Source of the DNA: Gammaproteobacteria bacterium
Lineage (GTDB): Bacteria; Pseudomonadota; Gammaproteobacteria; Steroidobacterales; UBA11654
Length of the DNA: 64,000 nt
Assembly: GCA_002717445.1 (NCBI GenBank)
Contig: PBDY01000002.1
Location: 39,186-103,185, forward strand
Reading direction: 5' to 3'
In this document: one piece after another, positions 7,728-45,464 of the stretch
Layout of the letters: each line of letters opens with the position of its first letter
Numbering within the stretch: position 1 is the first letter of the stretch
Made by a program: the position numbers and the translations under genes
The notes under the pieces: generated by a model
What the model was told of the DNA's origin: nothing
Database searches by the model: none
Seen by the model: only the letters and a program-made list of their open reading frames with translations

Positions 7728-9032
7728 ATGAATATCGAGATATTGTATTGGATTGTATTAATAGGGGTTTTTACTGGCCTTGCTTTTTTGGGCCAAAGAA
7801 CAAATCTAAAATTATGGGTGAGGGTTGTCACTGCTCTGGTGATTGGTGCAATTCTTGGTTTTATTTTCGGGGATGTTGCTGCATCGTCAAAATGGATTGG
7901 CGACCTATTTGTTCGATTTATAAAGATGTTGGTTGTGCCACTTATCTTTACATCACTTGTCGCGGGCGTGGTTTCAATGGGAGATCCAAAAAGACTGGGT
8001 TCTATCGGTATTAAGACCATTACTCTATATTTACTGACCACTCTTTTTGCAATCAGTATAGGCTTGGTATTGGGAACTCTTTTTTCTCCCGGTGCTGGGA
8101 TTGATTTAACTGGGGTGGATCCATATAGTGCAGTTCAATCTTCACAAAGTGTAAGCGATCGATTGTTTGGCATTGTGCCCCTCAATCCAATTGGTTCGCT
8201 GGCAGATGGCGATGTTTTGCCGATCATCTTTTTCTCCATACTCTTAGGTATTGGAATCATAATGGGCGGGAATAAAACAGAAAAGATTGGTGAGGTGTTC
8301 TCTTCAGCAGCGGAAGCCATCTTACAAATTGCTCACATGGTCATGCAGATGGCACCATATGGTGTTCTAGCCTTAGTTGCCTGGGTATCAGGAACAATGG
8401 GCTTGGCAGCACTTCAAAATTTATTTGTTTTGACTATTATTCTGTATGTTGGATGTATACTACACATGATCTTGGTCTATGGAGGTCTTATCCGCTTTGG
8501 AGCAAGATTGCCACTTAAAGCATTTTTCAAAGGAATTTTGGACGCACAAGCAGTGGCATACTCAACATCATCCAGCTCTGCAACACTTCCTGTCACGCTT
8601 CAATGCGTTGAAAATAATTTAGGCGTAAAGAAAACAGTCGCATCATCCGTTCTTCCTCTGGGCGCTACCATTAATATGGACGGCACAGCCCTCTATCTTG
8701 GAGTGGTTGCTCTCTTTTCAGCACAAATTTTTGGTGTGCAGCTTGAACTCTCGGATTACCTTTTGATTGCAATGACTGCTACATTGACTTCAATAGGTAC
8801 AGCCGGCATACCATCGGCATCTTTGTTTCTTTTGGCAACCGTTTTATCCGTCATAGGAATCAGTGATGCACAAACCGCACTGATAGTTGGATTTGTCCTA
8901 CCATTTGATCGAATCCTTGACATGGCAAGAACCGTGGTAAATATCACTGGGGATGCAACGGTTTCTGTTCTTGTTGCTAAATCCGAGGATGATATTGATG
9001 AAGATGTCTTTCGTAGCGAAAGCGTTTTATAA
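7728..9032 (+). CDS. Dicarboxylate/amino acid:cation symporter (DAACS family)
   Basis: 434-aa ORF with STSSSSATLP and ATINMDGTALY motifs. Confidence 0.85.
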   Translation: MNIEILYWIVLIGVFTGLAFLGQRTNLKLWVRVVTALVIGAILGFIFGDVAASSKWIGDLFVRFIKMLVVPLIFTSLVAGVVSMGDPKRLGSIGIKTITLYLLTTLFAISIGLVLGTLFSPGAGIDLTGVDPYSAVQSSQSVSDRLFGIVPLNPIGSLADGDVLPIIFFSILLGIGIIMGGNKTEKIGEVFSSAAEAILQIAHMVMQMAPYGVLALVAWVSGTMGLAALQNLFVLTIILYVGCILHMILVYGGLIRFGARLPLKAFFKGILDAQAVAYSTSSSSATLPVTLQCVENNLGVKKTVASSVLPLGATINMDGTALYLGVVALFSAQIFGVQLELSDYLLIAMTATLTSIGTAGIPSASLFLLATVLSVIGISDAQTALIVGFVLPFDRILDMARTVVNITGDATVSVLVAKSEDDIDEDVFRSESVL

Positions 9033-9051
9033 AAATGACATTAATTAACGC

Positions 9052-10488
9052 ATGAGACGAACAAAAATAATTGCAACATTTGGTCCATCAATTGCGGATC
9101 GGGAAACATTAAAAAATGTTTGTGAATACGCAGATGTCATTCGAATCAATTTAGCCCATGGAACATGGGATGAGGATGAAAAATATAATCATAAAAGAAA
9201 TATCGAGCTGATCAAAAAGACTTCCAAAGAACTTGGTAAGCCCGTTGCGATATTGGTTGATCTTAAGGGCAATAAGATCAGAATCAGTGACTTTTCTGAC
9301 CATGCGATTGACTTAGAGCACGGATCTGAAATCAGAGTTGTATTCACCAAAGAGAAAGAAACAAATAACCATGAGATCTTTATCGATGCTGAGTATTGCT
9401 TTTCACAAATAGAAGTTGGAGATCGAATCTTGCTCGATGATGGCCTTATTCAGTTGAATGTCAAAAGTATCGATGCAGACGGCAGGAACCTTAATTGTAT
9501 GGTGGATAAAGGGGGCTTGCTCAGAAGTAATAAGGGTTTTGAGGTGGAAGATAAGATAATTCATCGCTCAGGACTAGGAGAAGAAGATAAAAGAGATATC
9601 AGGAGACTGGCTGAACTGGGAATTGATTGGATTGCATTATCTTTTGTCAATGAGGCAAGCGATGTAACTCAGGCAAGAGAGGTTTTGACTGAAGCAGGAA
9701 GTACAATCAATCTGATCGCAAAGATTGAACGCCTTGAAGCACTCAAGCAACTCTTCTGGATAATCAAGGCCAGTGATGGAGTCATGGTTGCCAGAGGCGA
9801 TCTTGCCCTAGAATCAGGCCCTGGTGAGCTTACAGGCCTTCAAAAGGACATCATTAAACAAACCATTAAAGGAAAAAGAATCGCAATAACTGCAACACAG
9901 ATGATGGAATCGATGATCTCTAACCCAACGCCAACCCGAGCAGAAATGACAGATGTTTCTAATGCAGTACTAGATGGAACCGATGCCGTGATGCTCTCGG
10001 CAGAGACTGCAATTGGAAAATATCCTGTGGATACTGTAAAAGCGATGCATGAAGTTTGTGAGGGCGCAGAAACATACCAAGAATCAATTACAAAGAATGA
10101 AGAATACAAATTCTCTGAAATCAATAAAATTGATGAAGCCATTGCTATAAGCTCAATGAGCATTGCTAGAAATATGGAAATCAAAGCCATTGTTGCTCTC
10201 ACAGAGTCGGGTTCAACAGCATTGATGCTCTCTCGATATCGAACAAATATTCCAATATATGCATTTACTCGAAATGAGGATACACAAAGGAGAGTAGGTC
10301 TCTACAGAGGTGTCATTTCATACCAATACGAATTTATGGTCAATAGCTTGGCTGATGTGATTGATGATGTGAGGGATGAGCTTGTTGGTTCTTCGATACT
10401 TAATTCTGGGGATCTCATTGTGCTTACTTCTGGATCACCATTGAGAGTGAGCGGAGGAACAAATTCTCTTCGTTTGATCCATATCTGA
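9052..10488 (+). CDS. pyk: Pyruvate kinase
   Basis: 478-aa ORF with RRTKIIATFGP, KIERLEAL...SDGVMVARGDLA and AVMLSAETA blocks. Confidence 0.9.
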   Translation: MRRTKIIATFGPSIADRETLKNVCEYADVIRINLAHGTWDEDEKYNHKRNIELIKKTSKELGKPVAILVDLKGNKIRISDFSDHAIDLEHGSEIRVVFTKEKETNNHEIFIDAEYCFSQIEVGDRILLDDGLIQLNVKSIDADGRNLNCMVDKGGLLRSNKGFEVEDKIIHRSGLGEEDKRDIRRLAELGIDWIALSFVNEASDVTQAREVLTEAGSTINLIAKIERLEALKQLFWIIKASDGVMVARGDLALESGPGELTGLQKDIIKQTIKGKRIAITATQMMESMISNPTPTRAEMTDVSNAVLDGTDAVMLSAETAIGKYPVDTVKAMHEVCEGAETYQESITKNEEYKFSEINKIDEAIAISSMSIARNMEIKAIVALTESGSTALMLSRYRTNIPIYAFTRNEDTQRRVGLYRGVISYQYEFMVNSLADVIDDVRDELVGSSILNSGDLIVLTSGSPLRVSGGTNSLRLIHI

Positions 10489-32169: not shown

Positions 32170-33789
32170 GTGACTGTGAGCAAGAAAACAAAGCTGTTTA
32201 GAGAATTACTACTGAGCAAAAATCTTGAATTCTTGCTTGAGGCACATAATGGAATCAGTGCAAAAATTGCAGAAGAGGCAGGCTTTAAGGGTCTTTGGGC
32301 AAGCGGACTAGCAATATCTGCCCAATACGGTGTCAGAGATAGCAATGAGGCCAGCTGGACACAAGTGCTTGAAAACATAGAGTTCATGTCAGATGCCAGC
32401 AATATCCCAATCATGCTCGATGGCGATACTGGCTACGGTAACTTTAATAATGTTAGGCGTTTGATTAAAAAACTCGAACAGAGAAACATTGCGGCAGTTT
32501 GCATTGAGGATAAGCTTTACCCTAAAACCAATAGTTTCATAGATGGAGATAAGCAAGAACTTGCTGATATAGACGAATTTTGTAGTCGAATTAAGGCAGG
32601 CAAGGACGCCCAGATTGATGATGAATTCTCAATCATCACTAGGATTGAGGCTTTCATAGCCGGATGGGGATTAAGTGAGGCTTTGAAAAGAGCAGAGGCA
32701 TATCATCAAGCAGGCTCGGATGCGATTTTAATCCACAGTGCAAAATCTGAGCCAAGTGAAGTTTTGGCTTTCAAAAAAGAGTGGGGTGACACTTCGCCTG
32801 TGATTGTGGTTCCAACAAAATATTATTCCACTCCAACAGAGGTGCTGGAGCAAGAAGGATTTTCCATTGCAATTTGGGCGAACCACATGATCAGATCTTC
32901 AATCAAAGCCATGCAAGAATCCGCAGAAGAAATCTTTGCATCATCGTCAATTCTATCAACTGAAGGTGAGATTGCTTCTGTCAAAGAGGTTTTTCGGTTA
33001 CAAGGCGTTTCTGAATTAAAAGAGGCTGAAGAAAATTATTTACCAAAAAAAGAAAGGACAACAGATGCACTCATTCTTGCTGCTTCCCGAGGAGAAGCCA
33101 TGGGCAGTCTGACCGATGAACAACCCAAAACCATGATCCCACTGAAAAATAAAAGCATGTTAGAGCACATTACTGATATATATCGGAATCACGGAGTCAG
33201 TAAAATTCATGTTGTCCGAGGATACAAAAAAGAAGCAATCAATTTTCCCGAGTTGAACTATATAGACAATGATGATTTTGAGACCACTTCTGAGCTGTCT
33301 TCTTTTCATATGGCCATTGATCAGACCGATTCCGATATATATTGTTCATTTGGGGATGTTTTATTTAAGCCTTATTTGCTTCAATTAATGGATGATTTAG
33401 AAGACGATTTAGTGATTGTTGTAGATACACAATGGCAGGATTCTGTAAATAAAGACAGAGCAGCTGACTATGTAAAATGTTCCGAACCTCATTCCAGAAC
33501 TAATTATGGAAATCCAATATTTATAAAGTCTGCAGGAGAAGCACTGGATCAGGAGTCCATTCATGGAGAATGGATGGGTGTTATTAAAATTTCCTCTAAG
33601 GTTATGCCATTGATAAAAAAAGAGGTGAATCACCTATCAAAGGGAGAGGATTTTCATTCAATGAAAATGCACCATTTATTGGAACATTTATGCAAAAATA
33701 AGCAACCAATCAGAGTTGTTTACACCACGGGAAATTGGCTAGATGTCGACACACTCGAAGACGTCATAAGGGCTAATAATTTCATATGA
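32170..33789 (+). CDS. pepM: Phosphoenolpyruvate mutase fused to a C-terminal nucleotidyltransferase domain
   Basis: 539-aa ORF with a GTG start. Residues ~1-295 are near-colinear with known PEP mutases ([65 protein letters not shown]-type blocks). Residues ~300-539 form a LicC/MobA-like NTP-transferase fold ([26 protein letters not shown]). Confidence 0.9.
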
Positions 33790-34931
33790 TTTGTGCTGAA
33801 AAATTTTTAGATGAAGCATTTTATCTGGGTTTTAACGCCTATACAGGTGTTCCTTGTTCATTTTTGAAGCCTTTGATCAATGCATCAATTGAGACCGATC
33901 ATTTATCATACATTCCTGCTGTCAATGAAGGTGACGCAGTAGCTATTGCGGCTGGAATATATCTTGGTGGAGGTTTGCCTGTCGTCATGTTTCAAAATTC
34001 AGGATTGGGCAATGCCGTCAATCCATTTACATCCTTGATTCAAACCTTCGAAATACCCATTTTAATGATTGCCACACTGAGGGGTGACCCAGAGAATGAG
34101 CCTGACGAGCCTCAGCACCAACTTATGGGTAAGATCACAACCCAGATTCTTGATTTGATGGAAGTCAGTTGGTCTTGGTTTCCTGGAAACGAAGATGAAT
34201 TGACTGTAACAATGGAGACGATTAAAGATCGGATAATCGATTACCAAAAACCACATGTTTTAGTGATGAAGAAAGGTTCGGTTGAGCCGTATGAGCTTAC
34301 TGACCAATCTAAACATAAGAATGACCAAGCTTTAACCATAGATGATTGTGTGAACGAAACATCAGATTTGGTGAGTAGAGGCGATGTCATGAAGATGATC
34401 ATAGAGAAAACAACCGAAAAAGATGATTTGATCATCGCTACCACAGGTTATTCTGGAAGAGAGCTTTATGCTGCCGAGGACCGGAACAATCATTTCTATA
34501 TGGTTGGCTCAATGGGCTGTGCGATAGACATAGGATTGGGTTTATCAATGATGCAGCCGAATAAAAGAGTGATTGTCATCGATGGCGATGGGGCCCTCCT
34601 CATGCGTCTAGGTGCCATGTCAACAGTTGGTTTTATGGCTCCTGAGAATCTCACCCATATTGTTTTGGACAATGGTGTGTATGAGTCTACAGGCTCTCAA
34701 AAAACAGTTTCCTCAATACTAGATTTTAAAATGTTTGCGCATTCAAATTGTTATAGAAACTCATCGAAATTGAATTCCTTGGAAGACCTCGATTCGTTGC
34801 TTGAATCAAATAAGAAAGGACCAAACTTCATTCATTTCCCAATTAAGGCAGGAGTACCAAACAAACTTCCTCGCCCTTTAATCTCACCAAATGAGGTTGC
34901 ACAAAGATTTAGAGGAAATATAAATGATTAA
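33786..34931 (+). CDS. ppd: Phosphonopyruvate decarboxylase (ThDP-dependent)
   Basis: 381-aa ORF with an ATGA overlap onto pepM. It has ThDP enzyme blocks ([32 protein letters not shown]...[10 protein letters not shown]), and its position directly after pepM is canonical. Confidence 0.85.
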
Positions 34932-36021
34932 TCAAAAGCAAAATATTTTACTTAATCCAGGCCCAGTCAATATGTCGGATCGTGTAAAGAGACGCATGAT
35001 CAATGAGGATTTCTGTCACAGAGAGAATGAGTTCTCAAGTTTGATACAAGAGGTTAATTCTCAGCTGGCGAGTATTTATGACGATATGGAGGATTATGAA
35101 TCTGTGATCCTAACCAGTTCTGGAACTGGAGCCGTTGAAGGCATGTTGACCTCTTTTATACATGACGAGAAGTCACTGGTGATCAGCAATGGTGTTTATG
35201 GTGAGAGAATGGAAAAGATTTTACGTGTTCAGGGTAAGGCATACCAGACGATCCAATTTAACTGGCTTGATACAATTGATGTTCAATCAATTGCAGACTG
35301 TGTTGATGCCGATCGGAGCATTAAAAATCTAATCATGGTTCATCATGAAACGACCACTGGTCGTTTGAATCAATTAAGAAAAATAGGCCAATTGTGTAAG
35401 GACTATGGTCTTAATTTATACCTTGATGGTGTCAGTAGTTTTGGCGCAGAAGAAATTATGGCAAATGAAATCAACCTGAAAGCCGTTGCTGCATCTGCAA
35501 ATAAATGCCTCCATGGCGCACCCGGTCTTGCTTTTGTGATTGCACATAAGGATCAATGGGAAAAAGCTCCCAGGGAACCCTCTGGTGTGTACTTTGATTT
35601 ACATCAGTATTATGGCATGCAAAAAACAGACGGATTCTCGCCATTTACTCAAGGCACCCATTTGGTTGCCGCTCTTCATGAGGCAATTCTTGAATTCAGA
35701 GAAATGGGCGGATGGCAGGCAAGAAATACTTTATTTCAGCAAAGGGCAGAACAAATCTATGTTTGCTTGCATCAACTTGGTATTGAAACACTGATACCGA
35801 ATGAAGATTACTCATCGGTACTGAGGTCTTATCAACTGCCACAAGGCATTGGGTATCAAGATTTACATGCCTACATGAAAAGCAATGGATTTGTGATTTA
35901 TCAAGGACAAGGCAGCTTCAAGCAAAACATTTTTAGAATTTCAACAATGGGCCACATTGAAGAATCGGATATCACTTTATTGTGTGATTTGTTTAAAAAT
36001 TTTTTCAAAAACCATGGTTAA
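34924..36021 (+). CDS. 2-aminoethylphosphonate:pyruvate aminotransferase (class V aminotransferase)
   Basis: 365-aa ORF with an 8-nt overlap onto ppd. LLNPGPVNMSDRVK at the N-terminus and SANKCLHGAPGLAF (PLP-Lys context) fit the class V family, and the context completes the PepM-Ppd-transaminase route. Confidence 0.8.
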   Translation: MINQKQNILLNPGPVNMSDRVKRRMINEDFCHRENEFSSLIQEVNSQLASIYDDMEDYESVILTSSGTGAVEGMLTSFIHDEKSLVISNGVYGERMEKILRVQGKAYQTIQFNWLDTIDVQSIADCVDADRSIKNLIMVHHETTTGRLNQLRKIGQLCKDYGLNLYLDGVSSFGAEEIMANEINLKAVAASANKCLHGAPGLAFVIAHKDQWEKAPREPSGVYFDLHQYYGMQKTDGFSPFTQGTHLVAALHEAILEFREMGGWQARNTLFQQRAEQIYVCLHQLGIETLIPNEDYSSVLRSYQLPQGIGYQDLHAYMKSNGFVIYQGQGSFKQNIFRISTMGHIEESDITLLCDLFKNFFKNHG

Positions 36022-36772
36022 AGAAGCTGTAATTTTAGCAGCAGGGATGGGAAGCCGATTGGGTGGTCAAAATGATCAAAAGCCTAAAGGGCTTTTGCAG
36101 TTTGGTAGTCAATCCATTATTGAGGAGTCCATCAATAAGCTGATCAAGAATGGCATTGAGAAAATATGGATTGTCACGGGCTATCAATCTCAATACTTTA
36201 AAGAATTAACCAATCATTACAATTCAATCGTAAGCCTTGTGGATAATGCAGAGTATGATCAATCGGGAACATTGCATTCACTGTCGATGGTTGCAGACAA
36301 GGTTCGCTCTCCATTTTTATTGCTAGAGTCCGATATTATTTTTGAATACAGGGCAATTCAAACGATTCTAAATCATCAAAGTGAAAACTGTATTTTATTG
36401 AGCGGTTTCAGTGATTGTGGCGATGAGGTATTCGTTGAAGCCAATCAGGAAGAATTGGTAATGATGTCAAAAGACATGAGTGAGCTCAGCAGCCCGCCAG
36501 CTGGAGAATTGGTTGGAATTACAAAAATAGGGGAAGAATTATTTAAAATGATGATGCAGTTTCATGAAAGCGATGAAAAAAACAAATTGGCTGATTATGA
36601 AACCGATGCATTGGTTGCAGTTGCTAAAGTGATCTCAATTTCCTGCCTAAAAATAGAAGACTTAATATGGTCAGAAATAGATGATCAAGATCATCTCAAA
36701 CGTGCAAGGGAAGAAATTTATCCCATGGTTGTTGAAACTGATTTAAAATATTTTCCTAATTCATCGAAATAA
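36014..36772 (+). CDS. Stand-alone nucleotidyltransferase (LicC/MobA-like NTP-transferase fold)
   Basis: The start is set at ATG 36014, giving an 8-nt overlap (ATGGTTAA) with the transaminase stop. The N-terminus AVILAAGMGSRLG...KPKGLL is the canonical NTP-binding loop. Confidence 0.7.
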   Translation: MVKEAVILAAGMGSRLGGQNDQKPKGLLQFGSQSIIEESINKLIKNGIEKIWIVTGYQSQYFKELTNHYNSIVSLVDNAEYDQSGTLHSLSMVADKVRSPFLLLESDIIFEYRAIQTILNHQSENCILLSGFSDCGDEVFVEANQEELVMMSKDMSELSSPPAGELVGITKIGEELFKMMMQFHESDEKNKLADYETDALVAVAKVISISCLKIEDLIWSEIDDQDHLKRAREEIYPMVVETDLKYFPNSSK

Positions 36773-36784
36773 AGGCATTTATAG

Positions 36785-36982
36785 GTGACAAAAAGGATAA
36801 TAATTTTCTCAATGGTATCGGTTTGTTATGTCAATTCAGCTCATGCATACCTTGATCCCAGTACAGGAGGCATGCTGATTTCAGCAATACTGGGAATGTT
36901 TGCAACACTGGGTTTGGTGATTAAATCATATTGGTATAAATTAAAGTCACTCTTTAAAAAGAAAGAAAAAAGGATTGATTGA
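36785..36982 (+). CDS. 65-aa membrane peptide, unknown function
   Basis: GTG start 12 nt after the previous stop. A hydrophobic N-terminus ending in SAHA is followed by YLDPSTGG, a TM segment (MLISAILGMFATLGLVI) and a Lys-rich tail. It is kept because it sits inside a tightly coupled operon. Confidence 0.45.
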   Translation: MTKRIIIFSMVSVCYVNSAHAYLDPSTGGMLISAILGMFATLGLVIKSYWYKLKSLFKKKEKRID

Positions 36983-36991
36983 TCATTCGAT

Positions 36992-38122
36992 ATGACGACT
37001 TTTTTTAAAGGATATCAAGGATATCGAACATACAAAAAACTACCCAAATCTTTCAAAAAGATTGTTTTTTATTCAGAGAGTTTTCAAGACTGGCATCATC
37101 TCAAGCCTCTCTTGAATACATTACTAAATCAAGAAATAGATACCACCTATGTTGCTTCAGACGAGAAAGACCCTGGATTGCTAAAGCAGTCTCCAAATTA
37201 CAAATCGATCTTCATAGGAAAGGGTTTCTTTAGGATTTTGTTCTTTCAGTACTTAAAGGCAAAGTTGTTTATTTTAACGATGATGGATTTGAATAATTTT
37301 GAACTAAAGAGATCCATGCACTCAGTGCACTACGTATATATTTTTCATAGTTTAACCAGCACACACATGGTGGATACAGAAGAATCATTCGATCACTATG
37401 ACACCATATTATGTGCTGGCCCCCATCAAAAGAAAGAAATTGAATTGAGGGAGCAAAACAAAGATTTGAATGCCAAGAATCTTGTTTCCTATGGGTATCC
37501 GAGACTTGAAAGGTTGATCGAAATGAATGCGAAGCCGGTTACCCATAATAAAGTGATACTTTTGGCTCCCACATGGGGCGAGCAGAGCATTATCAATCTT
37601 ATAGGAATGGAGATATGCTCGATCATCATTGATCATGGTTATTCCTTGATCTTGAGACCGCATCACGAAACCCTTAAGCGCTCACCAGAGCTAATCAATG
37701 AAATAGAAAATCAGTATTCACACACTGAAAAATTTCGATTGGTCACAGAGATGGGGGATTCTCAGTCGCTCTTGCAGTCTGACTTATTAGTTTGTGATTG
37801 GTCGGGAACTGCAATTGAGTATTCACTGGGATTAGAAAAGCCCGTCATTTTCATCGACATACCCCCAAGAGTCAGGAATCCAAATTGGGAGGAGATTAAA
37901 TCTGAACCATTGGAAATGAGCATCAGAGAAAAAGTGGGTCGAATCATCTCTCCATCAGAACTTGAAGAGCTGCCGTCAACCATTGATGAATTACTCAATG
38001 ATGATCAACTCTTTTCAGATCAGATAGAATCACTGCGTGAAGAATTTGTATATAATTTAAGTCATTCAGAAAGCGTTGGTCTAGAAGAGATAAAGAAATT
38101 ACTAAAAACACTCAAAAACTAA
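36992..38122 (+). CDS. TagF/TagB-like CDP-alcohol phosphotransferase family protein
   Basis: 376-aa ORF. The blocks YIFHSLTSTH, SYGYPRLERL, ILLAPTWGE, ILRPHHE and LLVCDWSGTAIEYSLGLEKPVIFID parallel the TagF-family blocks (WHG.., GYPR.D, YAPTWR, KPHP, LITDYSS..KP) as I remember them. Confidence 0.6.
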   Translation: MTTFFKGYQGYRTYKKLPKSFKKIVFYSESFQDWHHLKPLLNTLLNQEIDTTYVASDEKDPGLLKQSPNYKSIFIGKGFFRILFFQYLKAKLFILTMMDLNNFELKRSMHSVHYVYIFHSLTSTHMVDTEESFDHYDTILCAGPHQKKEIELREQNKDLNAKNLVSYGYPRLERLIEMNAKPVTHNKVILLAPTWGEQSIINLIGMEICSIIIDHGYSLILRPHHETLKRSPELINEIENQYSHTEKFRLVTEMGDSQSLLQSDLLVCDWSGTAIEYSLGLEKPVIFIDIPPRVRNPNWEEIKSEPLEMSIREKVGRIISPSELEELPSTIDELLNDDQLFSDQIESLREEFVYNLSHSESVGLEEIKKLLKTLKN

Positions 38123-39894
38123 ATTATTCTTCAGCATGGTTCCTCTGGTATGGCTTTTTTAATGGGCTTATAGCCTTTCTCATTGGAATTCAGTATCTCC
38201 TTTTTTTTCCTTCAAGCACGACATTGCTTTCTGCAAGCTATGTTCTGTTTGCAACCTTGACTCATTTTATATCAATACATTTTCTACCCCTTCTCTTGCT
38301 CTCTTTGGTGCATCGGATTGCAGGCATGAAAAAATTCCTTATCCTCTTAGCAATAATTTACGCATCAACCATTAATACACTGATTGTCATGGATGCAAAC
38401 TTCTTTGCAGTAAACCGATTTCACATGAGTCTTATGACTGCGATCCTTTTTGACAGTGAAACTTATCTTTTTTCAATCCTCCAGTTCATCATTATGGTCG
38501 TCTTTCATTATTTTCTTGGTAATGAAATCGGGAAGTCTCTGGAAAGGAGAAGAAATAAGTCTTTTATTGGTGTTTCTCTCGCAGTAGCCACCATGAGTGC
38601 ATGGATTTATGTCCAAGGTGTCCACATTTGGGCCGATGCAAGCTATCAATCTTCCATCACCACTTTTACGCGATATTTGCCATTGTTCAGACCTATTCAC
38701 GCCAAAAGAGATCTTGCTAGATTGGGTTTAATCGATTCGGATCAATTGAGGAAACAGAATTTGTCTAAGAAAACAATGGATTCTGAGTTACTTTATCCAA
38801 AGAATGAGCTGCTTTGTCGCAGCGATACACAATCAGAAAATGTTTTGGTTATTTTAATCGATGCTTTGCGTCCTGAGATGATCAATGGTGAGATCATGCC
38901 CAATACTGCAAAACTTTTTTCTGAAAGCATCAGTTTTGATAATCACTACTCAGGCGGAACCTCCTCAAGAATGGGTATGTTTTCACTCTTTTATGGTTTG
39001 CCCTCTACATATTGGAGAGTGTTTCATGACAATCTAAAACCCGCATTAATGATTACAAAGTTTGATGAGAGCAATTATGACATACACGCCATCAGTTCAT
39101 CGGGCTTGGGAAGTCCTGCAGTGCTTGATAGGACCGCCTTTGCAGGCATTTCCAGTATCAACCTCAGACCACTTGGTGCTTCCGAAAAAGCCAGCCTAAA
39201 ATTGGTGACAAATGGTTGGGTAGAGACAATCAAGCAAAACCAAGATCCTAAATTCTTCACATTGCTTCATTATGACCCTCCAATCGATGAAGCCAACCCA
39301 AGTGAATCTTTAAATATCGCCAACAAATTTTCAAGAAAGAATGATACATCTCACAATCTTGAGGTCTCAAGATATATACAGTCCATTCGTGATGTGGATA
39401 TGGAAATTGGAAGGTTAAGCAATGTTTTACGAGAAAGGGATATGCTCAAAGACACCATTGTAATTCTAACCTCAGACCACGGTTATGAGCTCGATGATTA
39501 TCAAACCAATTATTATGGCCATTCCAGTAATTATAGTCCCGCCCAAACCAAGGTTCCTTTAAAAATCATTTGGCCAAACAGGGATTCTCAGAAATATTCT
39601 TTTCGATCATCGCACCATGATTTTGCACCAACTTTATTAAAGGAAGTATTGGGTTGTACAAACAGCTACTCTGATTACAGCACTGGCAATAATTTATTTC
39701 AGCAAAAGCCTTGGAAATATTTGATTGCCGGGAGTTATGATTCATTCGCTGTCTTGACGCCTGAAAAAGTCATCATATCCTATGGAAGTTATTTTGAGGT
39801 CAGAGATAAAAATTACAATCTCTCTGAAATTGAAGGCAAGGATTTGAAAGACATGGAGGATGCAATATCCAATATGAGTGAGTATTACAAATAA
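38098..39894 (+). CDS. YejM/PbgA(LapC)-like inner-membrane protein with periplasmic alkaline-phosphatase-superfamily domain
   Basis: Colinear with E. coli YejM from memory (VHIWADASYQ, FSLFYGLPSTYW). It also carries an ILTSDHGYE metal motif. The reading frame is open from 38056 and encodes the conserved first TM (SAWFLWYGFFNGLIAFLIGIQYLLFF) upstream of the first canonical start (TTG 38224). The start is provisionally placed at ATT 38098, and confidence in that start is only about 0.4. Confidence 0.7.
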   Translation: MTKNTQKLNYSSAWFLWYGFFNGLIAFLIGIQYLLFFPSSTTLLSASYVLFATLTHFISIHFLPLLLLSLVHRIAGMKKFLILLAIIYASTINTLIVMDANFFAVNRFHMSLMTAILFDSETYLFSILQFIIMVVFHYFLGNEIGKSLERRRNKSFIGVSLAVATMSAWIYVQGVHIWADASYQSSITTFTRYLPLFRPIHAKRDLARLGLIDSDQLRKQNLSKKTMDSELLYPKNELLCRSDTQSENVLVILIDALRPEMINGEIMPNTAKLFSESISFDNHYSGGTSSRMGMFSLFYGLPSTYWRVFHDNLKPALMITKFDESNYDIHAISSSGLGSPAVLDRTAFAGISSINLRPLGASEKASLKLVTNGWVETIKQNQDPKFFTLLHYDPPIDEANPSESLNIANKFSRKNDTSHNLEVSRYIQSIRDVDMEIGRLSNVLRERDMLKDTIVILTSDHGYELDDYQTNYYGHSSNYSPAQTKVPLKIIWPNRDSQKYSFRSSHHDFAPTLLKEVLGCTNSYSDYSTGNNLFQQKPWKYLIAGSYDSFAVLTPEKVIISYGSYFEVRDKNYNLSEIEGKDLKDMEDAISNMSEYYK

Positions 39895-41339
39895 TGTCAA
39901 TATTGATCAGAATTTATCTGCTGATTTTGATATTTTCTCATCAAGTACTGGGGCAGGAACAATCTCTCGATCAGAATCATTTTGACCAGATCACATTTGA
40001 TCAAGACACACCTCTGATCCAAAAGTGGGTGACGTGTTATCCAGATTGCTCATCCCAAAATAAAAACTCTTTTGAGATCAATACTGATTTCAGAACAGTC
40101 TTAAAAATCATGAATAGCAAAGGAGATTCTCACAATGACTATGTGATGACATCAAGAAAAGTAGGCGATGACTTTAAGATTTCGTACGCCCGAAGCAATT
40201 ATGAAGATGGGATATCAGAAGTGATTTTCACAACTGACACAAAGTTTGGTTTTTTGGAGCTAACGGTTCGATCTGATGCTGATATTCAGATTGAAATCAA
40301 CCCAAAGAATTTATTAAAAGAAGGCGATATCTATGGAATGGGCGGTATCTACAATGGCACATGGCTAGTAAGGGTTGATGATCGTGGCTCTGAAAACCTA
40401 TCCAATTTGAGTCAAGCTATTACTCAGGAAGGTTCATGGATTGGTGTTCGAACAAGATTCTGGTCTTTCCTTGTTTCCCCTAGAAATAATGAAGCATTGG
40501 TCAATAAAATCAATGAATCAGAGCTGGGATTAAGATTTAGATCAACTGCTGTAGATGGCTTGCATCGGTTTGTCTTGTATTTTGGCCCTCTGAGTACAAA
40601 ACAGTTTGTAGGCTCAGAGTCAGAACTAAGGAAACTTATGTACGCTGCACTTTGGGACTGGTTGAGACAATTATGCTTCTTTATTGAGTGGATCTTCATT
40701 TGGCTTTTAGAATTTTCTGGAAATGCAGGTTTAGCAATTCTTCTGCTTGCATGCGTACTAAAAGTCATCATTTATCCTCTCAATCGAATTGCTGAAAAAT
40801 GGCAGGACGATGTGAATGTTATTCACTCTATGCTGCAACCTAAGATCAATGAAATAAAATGCAATTTCTCAGGCGAAGAGGCCAATCACAGAATCATGAA
40901 ACTGTATAAAGATAAAAACATAAGTCCTTTTTACTCAATAAAGAGTTTTTTTGGTTTTCTGATACAGATACCAATATTCATAGCGGTCTTTGATGTATTG
41001 GGAGAATCAATATATCTATTGGGAGAGCCTTTTGTTTTTATTAATGACCTAAGCAAGCCTGATCAATGGGCAATGTTGCCATTCTTTATTCCTTATTTTG
41101 GGTCTTCAATGAATCTTTTACCATTTTGCATGATGATCATCAGCATTTTGAGCGCATATCTTTATACAGATAAAAATTTAAACAAAAATTTATTAAGCAA
41201 CCAAAAAAGAAAATTATATTTGATGTCTTTCTTATTTTTTGTCTTGCTGTTCACTTTTCCATCCGGGATGGTGCTTTATTGGACAACTTCGAATTTCCTT
41301 CATTTGATGCAAATGCAAATAAAAAAGGCTCTTCATTGA
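39894..41339 (+). CDS. YidC/Oxa1 family membrane protein insertase homologue
   Basis: 481-aa ORF with a TAATG junction to the upstream gene. It has an N-terminal anchor/signal, a shortened P1-like domain (WIGVRTRFWSFLVSP; LYFGPL) and a core with GNAGLAILLLACVLKVIIYPL, MLQPKINEIK, MKLYKDKNISPF, LIQIPIFIAVF and FPSGMVLYWTTSN. Confidence 0.75.
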   Translation: MSILIRIYLLILIFSHQVLGQEQSLDQNHFDQITFDQDTPLIQKWVTCYPDCSSQNKNSFEINTDFRTVLKIMNSKGDSHNDYVMTSRKVGDDFKISYARSNYEDGISEVIFTTDTKFGFLELTVRSDADIQIEINPKNLLKEGDIYGMGGIYNGTWLVRVDDRGSENLSNLSQAITQEGSWIGVRTRFWSFLVSPRNNEALVNKINESELGLRFRSTAVDGLHRFVLYFGPLSTKQFVGSESELRKLMYAALWDWLRQLCFFIEWIFIWLLEFSGNAGLAILLLACVLKVIIYPLNRIAEKWQDDVNVIHSMLQPKINEIKCNFSGEEANHRIMKLYKDKNISPFYSIKSFFGFLIQIPIFIAVFDVLGESIYLLGEPFVFINDLSKPDQWAMLPFFIPYFGSSMNLLPFCMMIISILSAYLYTDKNLNKNLLSNQKRKLYLMSFLFFVLLFTFPSGMVLYWTTSNFLHLMQMQIKKALH

Positions 41340-42419: not shown

Positions 42420-42442
42420 TTGCTTGTATCGGAGGATAGGTC

Positions 42443-43741
42443 ATTTCAGAAAAAAAGAAAATATCAGTTCCTGATCTTGGTGATTTCAGCGATGTAGAGA
42501 TCGTTGAAATGCATGTGCAGCCTGGAGACAACCTTAATATAGATGACCCAATCCTCACTTTAGAGACTGAAAAAGCAGCCATGGAGATTCCCAGTCCTAT
42601 TTCTGGGGCATTAATCGAGGTGTATGTCCAAAATGGAGACAAAATTAATCAAGGCGATGATCTGTGTTTGATCGAGGCTATAGAGACTGATCCTGTAGCC
42701 GAAGAAAATGAGGAGAAGGATACAGAACCAGAAATAAACAATGAAGGATCTCCCCAGATGACACGGGCTCAAAAGCCAGTTGAGCGGAGTCAAAAAAATG
42801 ATCGCCAATTCTTCAATACCTCTTTCGCCTCTGTGCATGCAAGCCCTTCAGTTAGAAAACTGTCACGCGAGCTGGGCGTAGATCTAAATCAAGTCAATGG
42901 ATCCGGAATGAAGGGCCGGATTCTTCCAGAGGATCTTAAATCATTCGTCAAAGGAGTAATGAGTGGAAAGATTGCTAGCGTTCAATCTGCTCTTCCAAAA
43001 CTGCCTGAAGTTGATCATTCTGCATTTGGAGATATCGAAAGCGTTCCATTGAGTCGGATAAAAAAGATATCGGGACCAAGACTTCAAGCCAGTTGGATCA
43101 ATATACCTCATGTCACGCAGCATGATGAGGTCGACATCAATAATCTGGAACAACTGAGAATGGATTTAAAGAAATCTTATCAATCAGATGGTATATCTCT
43201 TTCAATTCTTCCATTCATTGTTATGGCAGTTTGCCAACTCTTGAAGCAAATGCCTGATTTCAATTCATCGCTGGACGAGAAGAATTCAGCACTCATCCAT
43301 AAAAAATACATCAACATAGGATTTGCAGCAAATACCGATCAAGGGCTTATGGTTCCTGTCATAAAAAATGCAGATCAGAAAAGCTTAAAGAAAATCTCAC
43401 AAGAGCTTGTCAGGTTGAGTGAAGATGCCAGAAGCGGAAAGATCAAGTTAGAAGATCTTCAAGGCGGAACCTTTACGATATCGAGTCTGGGCGGTTTTGG
43501 GGGAGTTGGATTTACACCAATCATTAATCCACCCGAGGTTGCTATACTTGGCGTGGCTCGAGCACAAATAAGACCCATCATGATTAAAGGAAAATTCTTA
43601 CCAAGACTTATTCTTCCTCTTTCATTGTCTTATGACCATCGAGTCATTGACGGCGTTGGAGGCATTCAGTTTACAACTGCACTCAAGCAACTGCTTGAGA
43701 ATCCAGATTCATTTCTGTCTCAGGAGATCAGCGATGGTTGA
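42443..43741 (+). CDS. aceF: Dihydrolipoyllysine-residue acetyltransferase (E2 of a 2-oxo acid/pyruvate dehydrogenase complex), single lipoyl domain
   Basis: Lipoyl domain (TLETEKAAMEIPSP), E3-binding domain (SPSVRKLSRELGVDLNQVNGSGMKGRI) and catalytic domain (SLSYDHRVIDG). The start is placed at ATT 42443, 6 nt after GGAGGA, because the first ATG (42509) would truncate the lipoyl domain. Confidence 0.8.
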   Translation: MSEKKKISVPDLGDFSDVEIVEMHVQPGDNLNIDDPILTLETEKAAMEIPSPISGALIEVYVQNGDKINQGDDLCLIEAIETDPVAEENEEKDTEPEINNEGSPQMTRAQKPVERSQKNDRQFFNTSFASVHASPSVRKLSRELGVDLNQVNGSGMKGRILPEDLKSFVKGVMSGKIASVQSALPKLPEVDHSAFGDIESVPLSRIKKISGPRLQASWINIPHVTQHDEVDINNLEQLRMDLKKSYQSDGISLSILPFIVMAVCQLLKQMPDFNSSLDEKNSALIHKKYINIGFAANTDQGLMVPVIKNADQKSLKKISQELVRLSEDARSGKIKLEDLQGGTFTISSLGGFGGVGFTPIINPPEVAILGVARAQIRPIMIKGKFLPRLILPLSLSYDHRVIDGVGGIQFTTALKQLLENPDSFLSQEISDG

Positions 43742-45464
43742 GGTAAGAATACCTGATCTCGGTGATTTTGATGAAGTAGAGGTTGTTGAGATTCATGTGG
43801 CAAAAGGCGATACCATTCAGGAAGGAGACCCAATATTAACCCTTGAGACTGAAAAGGCTGCGATGGATGTTCAAAGTACTGTTTCTGGTGTTGTTGAAAA
43901 TGTTGTTGTTGGGCTTGGAGATAAGGTATCCAATGGAGATTTGGTCAGTAATGTCTCGTCTCAATCCCGACAGGATCCAGAAATACCCATTCAATCCAGA
44001 AATAATGAGCCAGATCAAAAGAATGAGTCCCACAATGAAACAATTCAGCCAATGCGATCTGAGCATGATTACGACCTGGTTGTACTGGGTGCAGGCCCCG
44101 GCGGTTATGCGGCTGCGTTCAGGGCTTCTGATCTAGGTTTAAATGTAGCTTTGGTCGATAGGAATGCAGATTTAGGAGGGGTTTGCCTCAATGTAGGATG
44201 CATTCCTTCAAAGGCCTTTCTTCATGCAGCAAAAATTTTAGACGACTCAAAAGATGCAGAGATCAGCGGTATAAAGTTCAATGAACCTGAAATTGATCTT
44301 TTCAAAATGAAAGCTTGGAAAAACAATATCATTGGAGGATTAACCGCAGGTCTCAAAGGACTTGCTCAGAAAAGAAACGTTGACGTGATTCAAGGTACAG
44401 CAACATTTTTATCAAAGACCGAGATTGAAATCATTCATGATGGTGAATCTAAGAAAATATCGTCTAAACAATTCATCATTGCAGTTGGTTCCGAACCGGC
44501 TGAGCTCCCTTTCTTCCCTGAGGATCCTAGGATTATTGATTCCACTGGCGCGCTGGAGCCTGATGATATTCCCTCAGATATTTTAATCATTGGTGGGGGC
44601 ATCATAGGTCTTGAGATGTCGACAATATACTCAGCCCTGGGCAGCGAAGTTACGATTATTGAGTTAACAAAAGACTTGATGCCAGGAACGGATCCTGATC
44701 TTGTAAGACCGCTTGAAAAAATTCTTAAAAAGAAGTGCAAAAATATCATGAAATCGGCCCAGGTGATTTCAGCTGAGCCTTCTGACCAAGGCATCAATGT
44801 TTTCTTTAGGCAAGACGACAAAGAATTCAGCGAAATATATCAAAACATTCTCGTTGCAGTTGGAAGAAAATCCAATGGACATCTTCTTGGCTTAGAGGAG
44901 ATAGGAGTGAAAGTAGACGATCGAGGCATCATCAGTGTCGATAAACAATTCAGAACCAATGTTGAATCCATTCTTGCCATTGGTGATGTGATTGGTGACC
45001 CCATGTTGGCCCACAAAGCAAGTCATGAAGGCAAAATTGCCGCTGAGGTAGTGGCAGGGCATAAAGTCACAAATGATGTTCGGTGTATTCCATCCGTTGC
45101 ATACACTGATCCTGAGGTAGCTTGGGTCGGGCTTTCAGAGGAAGAGTGTAAAGCCAAAGGGATGGATTATGGGAAAGGAATCTTTCCATGGTCAGCCAGT
45201 GGCAGATCGCTCACGATTGGTAGAAATGAGGGCATGACCAAATTACTCTTTAATCAATCAACCAAAAAGATCATTGGCGGTGGCATTGTTGGAACCAATG
45301 CCGGTGATTTAATCGCAGAGATTGTTTTAGCAATTGAAATGGATTGTGACGTGAATGATGTTGCTCTTACGGTTCACCCTCATCCCACATTATCTGAAAC
45401 GGTTGCAATGGCAGCAGAAGTGTTTGAAGGAACGATCACCGATTTATATATAAAAAGCCCATAA
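43734..45464 (+). CDS. lpd: Dihydrolipoyl dehydrogenase (E3) with N-terminal lipoyl domain
   Basis: ATG 43734 overlaps the aceF stop (ATGGTTGA). It has an N-terminal lipoyl domain (TLETEKAAMDVQS), the FAD motif DLVVLGAGPGGY, the redox disulfide GGVCLNVGCIPSK and a C-terminal HPHPTLSE. Confidence 0.9.
   Translation: MVEVRIPDLGDFDEVEVVEIHVAKGDTIQEGDPILTLETEKAAMDVQSTVSGVVENVVVGLGDKVSNGDLVSNVSSQSRQDPEIPIQSRNNEPDQKNESHNETIQPMRSEHDYDLVVLGAGPGGYAAAFRASDLGLNVALVDRNADLGGVCLNVGCIPSKAFLHAAKILDDSKDAEISGIKFNEPEIDLFKMKAWKNNIIGGLTAGLKGLAQKRNVDVIQGTATFLSKTEIEIIHDGESKKISSKQFIIAVGSEPAELPFFPEDPRIIDSTGALEPDDIPSDILIIGGGIIGLEMSTIYSALGSEVTIIELTKDLMPGTDPDLVRPLEKILKKKCKNIMKSAQVISAEPSDQGINVFFRQDDKEFSEIYQNILVAVGRKSNGHLLGLEEIGVKVDDRGIISVDKQFRTNVESILAIGDVIGDPMLAHKASHEGKIAAEVVAGHKVTNDVRCIPSVAYTDPEVAWVGLSEEECKAKGMDYGKGIFPWSASGRSLTIGRNEGMTKLLFNQSTKKIIGGGIVGTNAGDLIAEIVLAIEMDCDVNDVALTVHPHPTLSETVAMAAEVFEGTITDLYIKSP

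Follow-up and report, generated by a model that had tools for sequence, protein, structure and literature searches.

The window analysed here, a stretch of 64,000 nucleotides (nt) of DNA from an uncultured marine gammaproteobacterium, carries on its plus strand a gene for a YejM-like protein (DUF3413 plus a sulfatase fold) that probably starts at an ATT codon at position 38098, inside the 3' end of a TagF-like gene, and not at the canonical codon from which it is called. We put the probability that ATT 38098 is the start codon, with coupled reinitiation at or next to the ATT included, at about 0.8; that ribosomes use the AUU is deduced from comparative sequence data. Observed directly were a conserved translated frame in which no canonical start is conserved, an ATT that does not vary among relatives, and the mapping of the protein's motifs. 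The fuller explanation, in which an AUU start that arose by deletion is assisted by translational coupling and yields a protein with an LtaS/EptA-like role, is in our estimate very nearly as probable.

Mechanical calling of open reading frames (ORFs) placed this gene at TTG 38224 to 39894, TTG (38224..38226, +) being the first canonical start in the frame. The frame is open from 38056, directly after a TAA at 38053-38055, and holds no ATG, GTG or TTG until 38224; this gap of 56 codons between upstream stop and canonical start is the largest among the 51 ORFs of at least 150 amino acids (aa) in the window, the runner-up being 33 codons. Read from ATT (38098..38100, +), the full coding sequence occupies 38098..39894 on the plus strand (598 codons plus stop), and its first 42 codons, at 38098-38223, encode ITKNTQKLNYSSAWFLWYGFFNGLIAFLIGIQYLLFFPSSTT. 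The upstream TagF-like gene (Glyphos_transf; 36992-38122) terminates at TAA 38120-38122, giving an overlap of 25 nt (38098..38122, +) in which the two frames are related by a -1 shift. An ATG at 38136 lies in the third frame and runs into a stop after 8 codons. The first-pass annotation of this DNA, made from the sequence alone, had described the frame open from 38056 without a canonical start before TTG 38224, the ATT 25 nt inside the TagF-like gene, and the out-of-frame ATG 38136 with its 8 codons, and rereading the window reproduced all of these.

The same annotation had recognized the first transmembrane (TM) helix of E. coli YejM in the 42 codons ahead of TTG 38224, and profile searches agreed. 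HMMER aligned residues 6-576 of the protein read from ATT with residues 10-559 of E. coli YejM (EKVSQMVSWGHWFALFNILLSLVIGSRYLF from residue 10 onward; E = 5.8e-52; 22-24% identity), so that the upstream codons fall on E. coli TM1; the TM1 codons proper (residues ~14-37; 38137..38208, +) have a hydropathy peak of 1.84. Full coverage of the Pfam DUF3413 profile (PF11893; 117.7 bits, cutoff 27.1, profile positions 6-248 of 248) was obtained only when the gene was read from ATT 38098, and the Pfam Sulfatase profile (PF00884) matched at 98.3 bits. In an AlphaFold2 (AF2) model computed with 78 homologues (mean predicted local distance difference test score [pLDDT], 91.9; predicted TM-score, 0.91), residues 2-34 were predicted to be helical (pLDDT, 94-97) and TM1 was predicted to form part of a PbgA-like bundle of five TM helices; the top Foldseek match of this model was full-length PbgA (6xlp_A; TM-score, 0.70; E = 1.6e-33). 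Hydropathy and the positive-inside distribution likewise fit five helices with an N-in/C-out orientation. The gene product is a 598-residue inner-membrane protein with five N-terminal TM helices, an interfacial linker, and a periplasmic domain of the alkaline phosphatase superfamily.

We compared the DNA of the start region across 24 assemblies covering the site, made up of 5 species-level genomes, 16 metagenome contigs, and 3 contigs of a clade at 51% protein identity. These are metagenome-assembled genomes (MAGs), single-amplified genomes (SAGs), and metagenomes from separate projects, and they fall into two clades with 51-100% protein identity; the labelled relatives are Gammaproteobacteria bacterium MED656, MED641, UBA11654, AG-447-O13, and AG-365-L08. 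The codon equivalent to 38098 was ATT in 24/24 assemblies, and this codon, here called codon 0, was the sole near-cognate codon common to all of them; in many relatives codon +1 is ATT as well. The nearest in-frame stop upstream of the ATT was 5, 6, 12, or 15 codons away, and in all ATT-clade relatives the overlap of the TagF-like and YejM-like genes was 19 or 25 nt. By comparison, the first in-frame canonical start was scattered over 8 positions (+16, +27, +34, +40, +42, +49, +50, and +71 codons). The position of TTG 38224 was occupied in relatives by TTG or by other codons, with ATT, TTT, GTT, or CTG in several.

The region between the TagF-like stop and the called start also evolves as coding sequence. 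Over the 33 codons from the TagF-like stop to the 38224 position in 14 distinct close-clade sequences, variable columns numbered 10, 9, and 29 at codon positions 1, 2, and 3, the same pattern as in the next 20 codons of the undisputed YejM-like gene (5, 4, and 17). Pairwise codon differences in these 33 codons were 836 synonymous to 475 nonsynonymous in the YejM-like frame, the other two frames giving 119:1177 and 99:1205. The 33 upstream codons thus bear a clear protein-coding substitution signature, and bear it in the YejM-like frame only. In proposing the ATT start, the first-pass annotation had also named ways in which the proposal could fail (a canonical start conserved at 38224, nonconserved sequence upstream of it, or an indel that brings ATG 38136 into frame), and each comparison argues for the ATT: a canonical start at 38224 is not conserved among the relatives, the upstream sequence is conserved as coding sequence, and an indel of this kind was found in none of the relatives, ATG 38136 itself being unconserved.

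The sequence around the ATT is under constraint at the nucleotide level as well. The purine-rich element AGAAGAGATAAA (38083..38094, +; 12 nt) was invariant throughout the close clade, in all 14 distinct sequences, and AGAGATAAA was retained in the 51% clade. Within it, 7 nt upstream of the ATT, is AAGAGA, which differs from AGGAGA at one position; the weak purine-rich stretch of the first-pass annotation is a Shine-Dalgarno (SD)-like element that is weak yet strictly conserved; the predicted energy of its duplex with the anti-SD sequence was -4.1 kcal/mol, versus -0.3 kcal/mol at TTG 38224. Wobble sites of the TagF-like gene were variable at 1/7 positions from -15 to +3 relative to the ATT, compared with 71/95 in the preceding 100 codons (binomial P = 0.0014); this depletion near the ATT implies a constraint additional to coding for the TagF-like protein. 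In the TagF-like frame, moreover, the Leu codon that supplies the TT of the ATT is always TTA and never CTA, while the next Leu codon is TTA, CTA, or CTC. The pair of Leu codons serves as an internal control. The 100 nt around the ATT (38068-38167) had a minimum free energy of -9.2 kcal/mol versus a shuffle mean of -15.9 kcal/mol (z = +2.09), and 199/200 shuffled sequences folded at least as well; such poor folding is in keeping with an initiation region and offers nothing in favour of a frameshift stimulator.

In the mechanism that we propose, the AUU would be exposed in an unusually unstructured, A-rich stretch behind the weak but strictly conserved SD-like AAGAGA, and ribosomes terminating 19-25 nt 3' in the TagF-like frame would probably assist by translational coupling. 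Coupling likely contributes because the TagF-like gene terminates 19-25 nt downstream of the ATT in every relative; coupling has been reported in reporters for overlapping cistrons and for the infC AUU junction (PMC3592434). Initiation at AUU would be expected to give low, possibly initiation factor 3 (IF3)-sensitive, expression. As a separate observation, GTATATAATTT at 38048-38058 in the TagF-like gene, which holds a perfect TATAAT, is nucleotide invariant in all three clades, including the wobble positions of its V-Y-N-L codons, and lies ~45 nt 5' of the ATT. A two-hexamer scan for an internal sigma-70 promoter in the TagF-like 3' end found none; an internal promoter for the YejM-like gene and the YidC-like gene that follows it is possible.

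A sister clade suggests how an ATT start could have come about. In its contigs (L022, L028, and L029) gene order is as in the window, 11 nt separate the end of the TagF-like gene from an ATG or GTG start, and this start sits eight codons 3' of the ATT-equivalent position, where the codons are GTT, GTT, and GCT, respectively. Relatives at 47-48% identity encode proteins of 601 aa with ATG or GTG immediately before TM1. Upon alignment of the DNA, the close clade proved to be 15 nt and the 51% clade 9 nt shorter at the exact place of the sister clade's TagF-like stop, spacer, and ATG; the ATT is present precisely in the lineages that lack a canonical start and absent where one exists. The ancestral state would then have been two separate genes, the second with an ATG, as retained today in the sister clade. 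A deletion of 9-15 nt would have taken out the TagF-like stop and the YejM-like ATG together, extending the TagF-like gene by four codons (…KTLKN*) and shifting YejM-like initiation to the upstream ATT.

Other readings of the start region were weighed against initiation at the ATT. The homopolymer runs T6 (38155-38160) and T8 (38201-38208) raise the question of a sequencing or assembly error, namely an indel that conceals a canonical start such as ATG 38136. The frame and the missing canonical start, however, are identical in 24 independent assemblies, and an error is excluded because synonymous changes break up both T runs in relatives and many of these have AGT TGG or AAT TGG in place of ATG 38136; the residues 5' of ATG 38136 (SAW/SSW/SNW) also align with YejM. 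We regard a hidden indel as refuted, its residual probability being negligible. Hardly more credible is that the annotated start is correct after all, with TTG 38224 or another downstream canonical codon in use and the upstream conservation due to some other cause. All automated public gene calls do use a downstream canonical start, but those starts fall at 8 positions and are often missing at the 38224 equivalent, TTG 38224 has no SD element (-0.3 kcal/mol), and the codons upstream combine a coding pattern with the match to DUF3413/YejM TM1. Without TM1 only 4 of the 5 TM helices would be left and the periplasmic domain would be misplaced; TTG 38224 was accordingly rejected as the true start. 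A GTG within 'RW-V-AWFGF', tried as the start for the 51%-identity clade, fails as a general answer, as L026 has ATA there and conservation (LIRW) continues upstream.

Because a -1 shift of the TagF-like frame gives the YejM-like frame, a programmed -1 frameshift could dispense with independent initiation altogether: slippage on A-AAR (38092-38095), or on A-AAA-AAA in some relatives, would produce a TagF-like/YejM-like fusion. Every relative has A-AAR, ~10/14 distinct sequences have a perfect A-AAA-AAA heptamer, and dual coding or a stimulator could account for the invariant 12 nt before the ATT. Relatives do not all keep the tandem-slippery heptamer, though: the window, L003, and L006 have A-AAG-AAA, and L025-27 have A-AAA-CAA. 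No stimulatory hairpin or pseudoknot lies 5-9 nt 3' of it, in keeping with the shuffling result above. Frameshifting also leaves unexplained why the ATT is invariant while the flanking codons of the YejM-like frame vary (E/K/T before, T/I after), and why the clade with an ATG start has G at that position; in-frame stops lie as near as 5 codons upstream of the ATT, and the TagF-like and YejM-like proteins are separate in relatives at 34-48% identity. We consider a frameshift quite improbable. Somewhat less so, although still unlikely, is that post-termination ribosomes reinitiate not at the ATT as such but at a neighbouring noncanonical codon (the second ATT, ACT, or AAA). The TagF-like stop 19-25 nt downstream of the ATT in all relatives and the second ATT at codon +1 in many of them would suit this, and reinitiation can supply about half of second-cistron translation at overlapping junctions (PMC3592434). 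Yet the codon-0 ATT alone is common to 24/24 assemblies while the other candidates vary, and a mechanism independent of the start codon would not keep ATT over GTT. Its protein product would be near identical, making it a minor variant of initiation at the ATT.

Several points nonetheless weigh against the ATT start. The SD-like element before it is weak (-4.1 kcal/mol), and SD use in this genome is weak in general, the median at called starts equalling the background of -2.7 kcal/mol. AUU initiation in E. coli reporters is 6-8 fold below that from AUG (PMC3592434). Conservation just 5' of the ATT would be expected equally if that sequence were translated in the YejM-like frame, and the A-AAR at 38092-38095, present in every relative, would let tRNA-Lys slip by -1.

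The window holds one further gene with an apparent ATT start. The gene for an E2 acyltransferase (42431-43741, +) is called from ATG 42509, and its lipoyl match then begins at profile position 20 and scores 45 bits. Its frame is open for 23 codons upstream of ATG 42509, without a canonical start, and includes an ATT at 42443; GGAGGA (42431-36) lies 6 nt before this codon, with a predicted anti-SD energy of -9.5 kcal/mol, the strongest of any noncanonical candidate in the window. Read from ATT 42443, the protein matches Biotin_lipoyl at 59 bits over profile positions 2-73 of 73. The ATT is retained in L001, L002, and L022/23 and is ATC in L003/5, and in L022/23 the SD spacing suits the ATT better than the annotated ATG. 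When the window was screened for noncanonical starts with strong SD elements, only this ATT stood out, and the other long stop-to-start gaps look noncoding. On these grounds the E2 gene appears to start at ATT 42443 and not at ATG 42509. With two such genes among ~50, ATT initiation would seem to be more than an isolated case in this lineage, which lends support to the explanation given for the YejM-like gene. The neighbouring ORF, called from ATG 43632 (43632-45464, +), is a lipoyl-domain/dihydrolipoamide dehydrogenase (E3) fusion that likely starts at ATG 43734, where AGGAGA with a 6-nt spacer precedes the start, the overlap with the E2 stop is 8 nt, and the lipoyl match begins at residue 3; its layout parallels that of the E2 ATT, with a normal start codon.

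AUU-initiated genes are already known as a rare class, of which the YejM-like gene would be a well-supported further example. Precedents are infC, pcnB, and Enterococcus faecalis ebpA (PMC4447247, PMC3592434); in ebpA, 120 bp separate the true ATT from the annotated ATG that follows it (PMC4447247), and the infC AUU is close to the end of the preceding cistron (PMC3592434). As in these three genes, a conserved coding region here reaches 5' of any canonical start and begins at an ATT; as with ebpA, annotation picked a downstream canonical codon and truncated the protein, and as with infC the ATT is near the end of the preceding cistron. Unlike them, the YejM-like gene has its ATT 25 nt inside the upstream gene and not after it, is known from sequence comparison, and shares its ATT across clades ~50% apart in protein, apparently as the outcome of an intergenic deletion. 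In a further difference from infC, nothing points to autoregulation by IF3.

Truncation by annotation is widespread in this group. In a protein search, the 18 closest clusters (73-100% identity, all of marine metagenome or MAG origin) were called at 445-558 aa without TM1, with differing start points (MTFLSASY, MATLTHF, MSLIHR, and others). Public calls in the ATT clades, comprising these 18 closest 90%-identity clusters together with P0019, P0026, and P0027, are truncated by 16-71 codons and lack TM1; the clusters represent well over a thousand database entries. The error passes into topology predictions, domain boundaries, and family models built from the truncated calls, and pipelines limited to ATG, GTG, and TTG are unable to correct it. 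The gene would also illustrate a route to an ATT start, in which one deletion takes stop and start together and the ATT start then persists through deep divergence, and the second candidate 4 kb away hints that streamlined marine genomes may have more ATT starts than one would expect from model organisms.

We next consider the protein itself. The label YejM/PbgA-like, given in the first-pass annotation, obscures several points. The protein scored 225.5 bits against the NCBIfam model LapC_YejM_PbgA (NF038282), far below the cutoff of 825 bits, and we do not class it with the LapC orthologues. It belongs to a subfamily of its own, accompanied by a YidC-like gene and mostly by a phosphonate operon. 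With YejM (PbgA, LapC; PDB 6XLP, 6V8Q, and 5I5H) it shares the DUF3413 domain of five TM helices, a basic pair in the linker, and a sulfatase-fold periplasmic domain. It differs in that its gene probably starts at ATT, lies in a phosphonate operon, and is always followed by the YidC-like gene, and in having D460-H461 where E. coli YejM has G450-R451.

This last difference concerns the metal site. HMMER aligned VILTSDHGYE with VIITAGRGIP of E. coli YejM, placing D460-H461 (TSDHGYE; codons 39475..39480, +) on G450-R451; the equivalent residues are D475-H476 in LtaS and the DH of SDHG in EptA. E. coli YejM R451 occupies the position of EptA H453 and LtaS H476, and D268 and T302 the positions of the other ligand and of the nucleophile (Gabale et al., PMC7576196). 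According to a recent review, E. coli YejM has not kept the metal ligands of LtaS/EptA, and the relevance of its reported Mg-dependent phosphatase activity is unclear (PMC12444477). In the window protein, D255 of LIDALRPE (codon 38860..38862, +), the first metal ligand position, corresponds to E. coli D268, and T288-S289-S290 (codons 38959..38967, +), the candidate nucleophile, corresponds to E. coli N300-T301-T302 and aligns with GTAT of EptA. When the profile of the 78 homologues was aligned by hhalign with E. coli EptA (from NC_000913.3), SGGTSS fell on SCGTAT and TSDHGYE on LSDHGES (probability, 29%; E = 6e-4). The first-pass annotation had read LIDALRPE and SGGTSS in the periplasmic domain, recovered here as D255 and residues 285-290, and an SDHG metal motif, and the DHG indeed maps to the metal site both through the YejM alignment and through hhalign to SDHGE of EptA. 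It had also noted that this homologue keeps the Asp-His pair; the motif does distinguish the protein from E. coli YejM, but in the 78 homologues (33-47% identity) D255, S289, D460, H461, and G462 never vary, which makes the D-H motif a trait of the subfamily and not of this gene. S290 (at least 90%), R291, H475, and H506 are nearly invariant in the same set.

A complete predicted metal and nucleophile site is retained, consisting of D255, S289/S290, D460, H461, and H475, and catalytic competence of the YejM-like protein is plausible. With LtaS, EptA, MCR-1, and OpgB it shares five N-terminal TM helices and an extracytoplasmic catalytic domain in which D255, SGGTSS, and SDHG align; in contrast to LtaS and EptA, its TM domain is DUF3413 and not of the EptA or LtaS type, and its nucleophile is probably Ser and not Thr. 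We propose that it most likely acts on a head group, phosphonate- or phosphate-bearing, of a lipid or glycan, as a periplasmic transferase or hydrolase of the LtaS/EptA kind, and that this head group would be the product of the 2-aminoethylphosphonate (AEP) genes upstream. Probably, then, it is not solely a LapC-type regulator of LpxC. Two observations pull the other way. The register of the nucleophile differs by alignment, T288 being indicated against EptA and S289/S290 against YejM T301/T302. Interfacial K203-R204 are at least 90% conserved in the 78 homologues and align with R215-R216 of E. coli YejM, an interfacial basic pair that binds lipopolysaccharide (LPS) (PMC12444477), and their conservation suggests that YejM-like LPS or lipid binding may be retained.

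The YejM-like gene is the 7th of 8 in a tightly packed plus-strand operon at 32170-41339. The operon opens with a phosphoenolpyruvate (PEP) mutase-cytidylyltransferase fusion (32170-33789, +), which passes the TIGR02320 cutoff (380 bits; cutoff, 319.6), and a phosphonopyruvate decarboxylase (33786-34931, +), which passes that of TIGR03297 (402 bits; cutoff, 312.5). An AEP aminotransferase (PhnW-AepZ; 34924-36021, +) follows, just below the TIGR03301 cutoff (346.9 bits; cutoff, 360.8), and then a second nucleotidyltransferase identified by Pfam and NCBIfam (35957-36772, +), an ORF of 65 aa matching neither Pfam nor NCBIfam (36785-36982, +), and the TagF-like gene (36992..38122, +; PF04464, 40 bits), whose product has the conserved C terminus EEIKKLLKTLKN and whose 3' end holds the ribosome-binding region and the ATT. 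Last comes the YidC-like gene (39894..41339, +; 481 aa), whose ATG overlaps the YejM-like stop (TAATG). It matches Pfam 60KD_IMP at 105 bits, over residues 279-476 only, and misses all NCBIfam YidC equivalog cutoffs.

The YidC-like gene came next after the YejM-like gene in every relative examined, and the pair is kept in L022, L026, L028, L029, L032, and L033; the YidC-like protein may be a dedicated partner and not a housekeeping insertase. The operon order recurs at 48-51% identity and, in the 3.57-Mb genome L032, at 38% identity. In L033 (34% identity) the pair occurs without phosphonate genes, between glmU and the atp operon (atpC), with the YidC-like gene at 7848-9374. Fusions of Ppm and PntC and sulfatase-family genes in phosphonolipid clusters have been described (PMC8942020), and marine gammaproteobacteria are known potential phosphonate producers (bioRxiv 10.1101/2020.11.04.368217). 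In the literature searched, we found no description of a DUF3413/YejM-like and YidC-like pair in AEP-type clusters. The operon resembles AEP-type clusters (Ppm-Ppd-AEPT, with PntC fused to Ppm) in having the same gene set directly upstream of the pair, in the same orientation and overlapping or abutting; it differs from them in that the pair also occurs without phosphonate genes, as in L033.

A subfamily with an intact LtaS/EptA-type site and a YidC-like partner in an AEP operon is a candidate for the step that attaches phosphonates to marine bacterial surfaces. Going further, it is conceivable, if on balance doubtful, that the lineage uses AUU as a regular start codon (at least 2 of ~50 genes in 64 kb, at least one of them from a streamlining deletion of spacer and ATG) and that the DUF3413 enzyme and an obligatory YidC-like partner form an undescribed periplasmic module attaching AEP to the cell envelope. 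If this were true, the frequency of AUU starts in the window would be far above that of E. coli, in which two or three AUU-start genes are known.

The window has a GC content of 39%; a minority of its genes have strong GGAG-type SD sites, and overall SD complementarity is at the background level. Searches of the whole 64-kb window with Rfam (at gathering thresholds) and ARAGORN returned no RNA families, tRNA, or rRNA. Every version of the operon has a small ORF (55-89 aa) after the nucleotidyltransferase gene and ahead of the TagF-like gene, for example at 1635-1853 in L022, 999-1166 in L026, and 4538-4807 in L032. The nucleotidyltransferase ORF itself, if begun at the called TTG 35957, shares 65 nt with the aminotransferase gene and has domain matches that begin at residue 23-24, and its relatives are 245-251 aa long versus 271 aa in the window; its true start probably lies ~20-26 codons 3' of TTG 35957.

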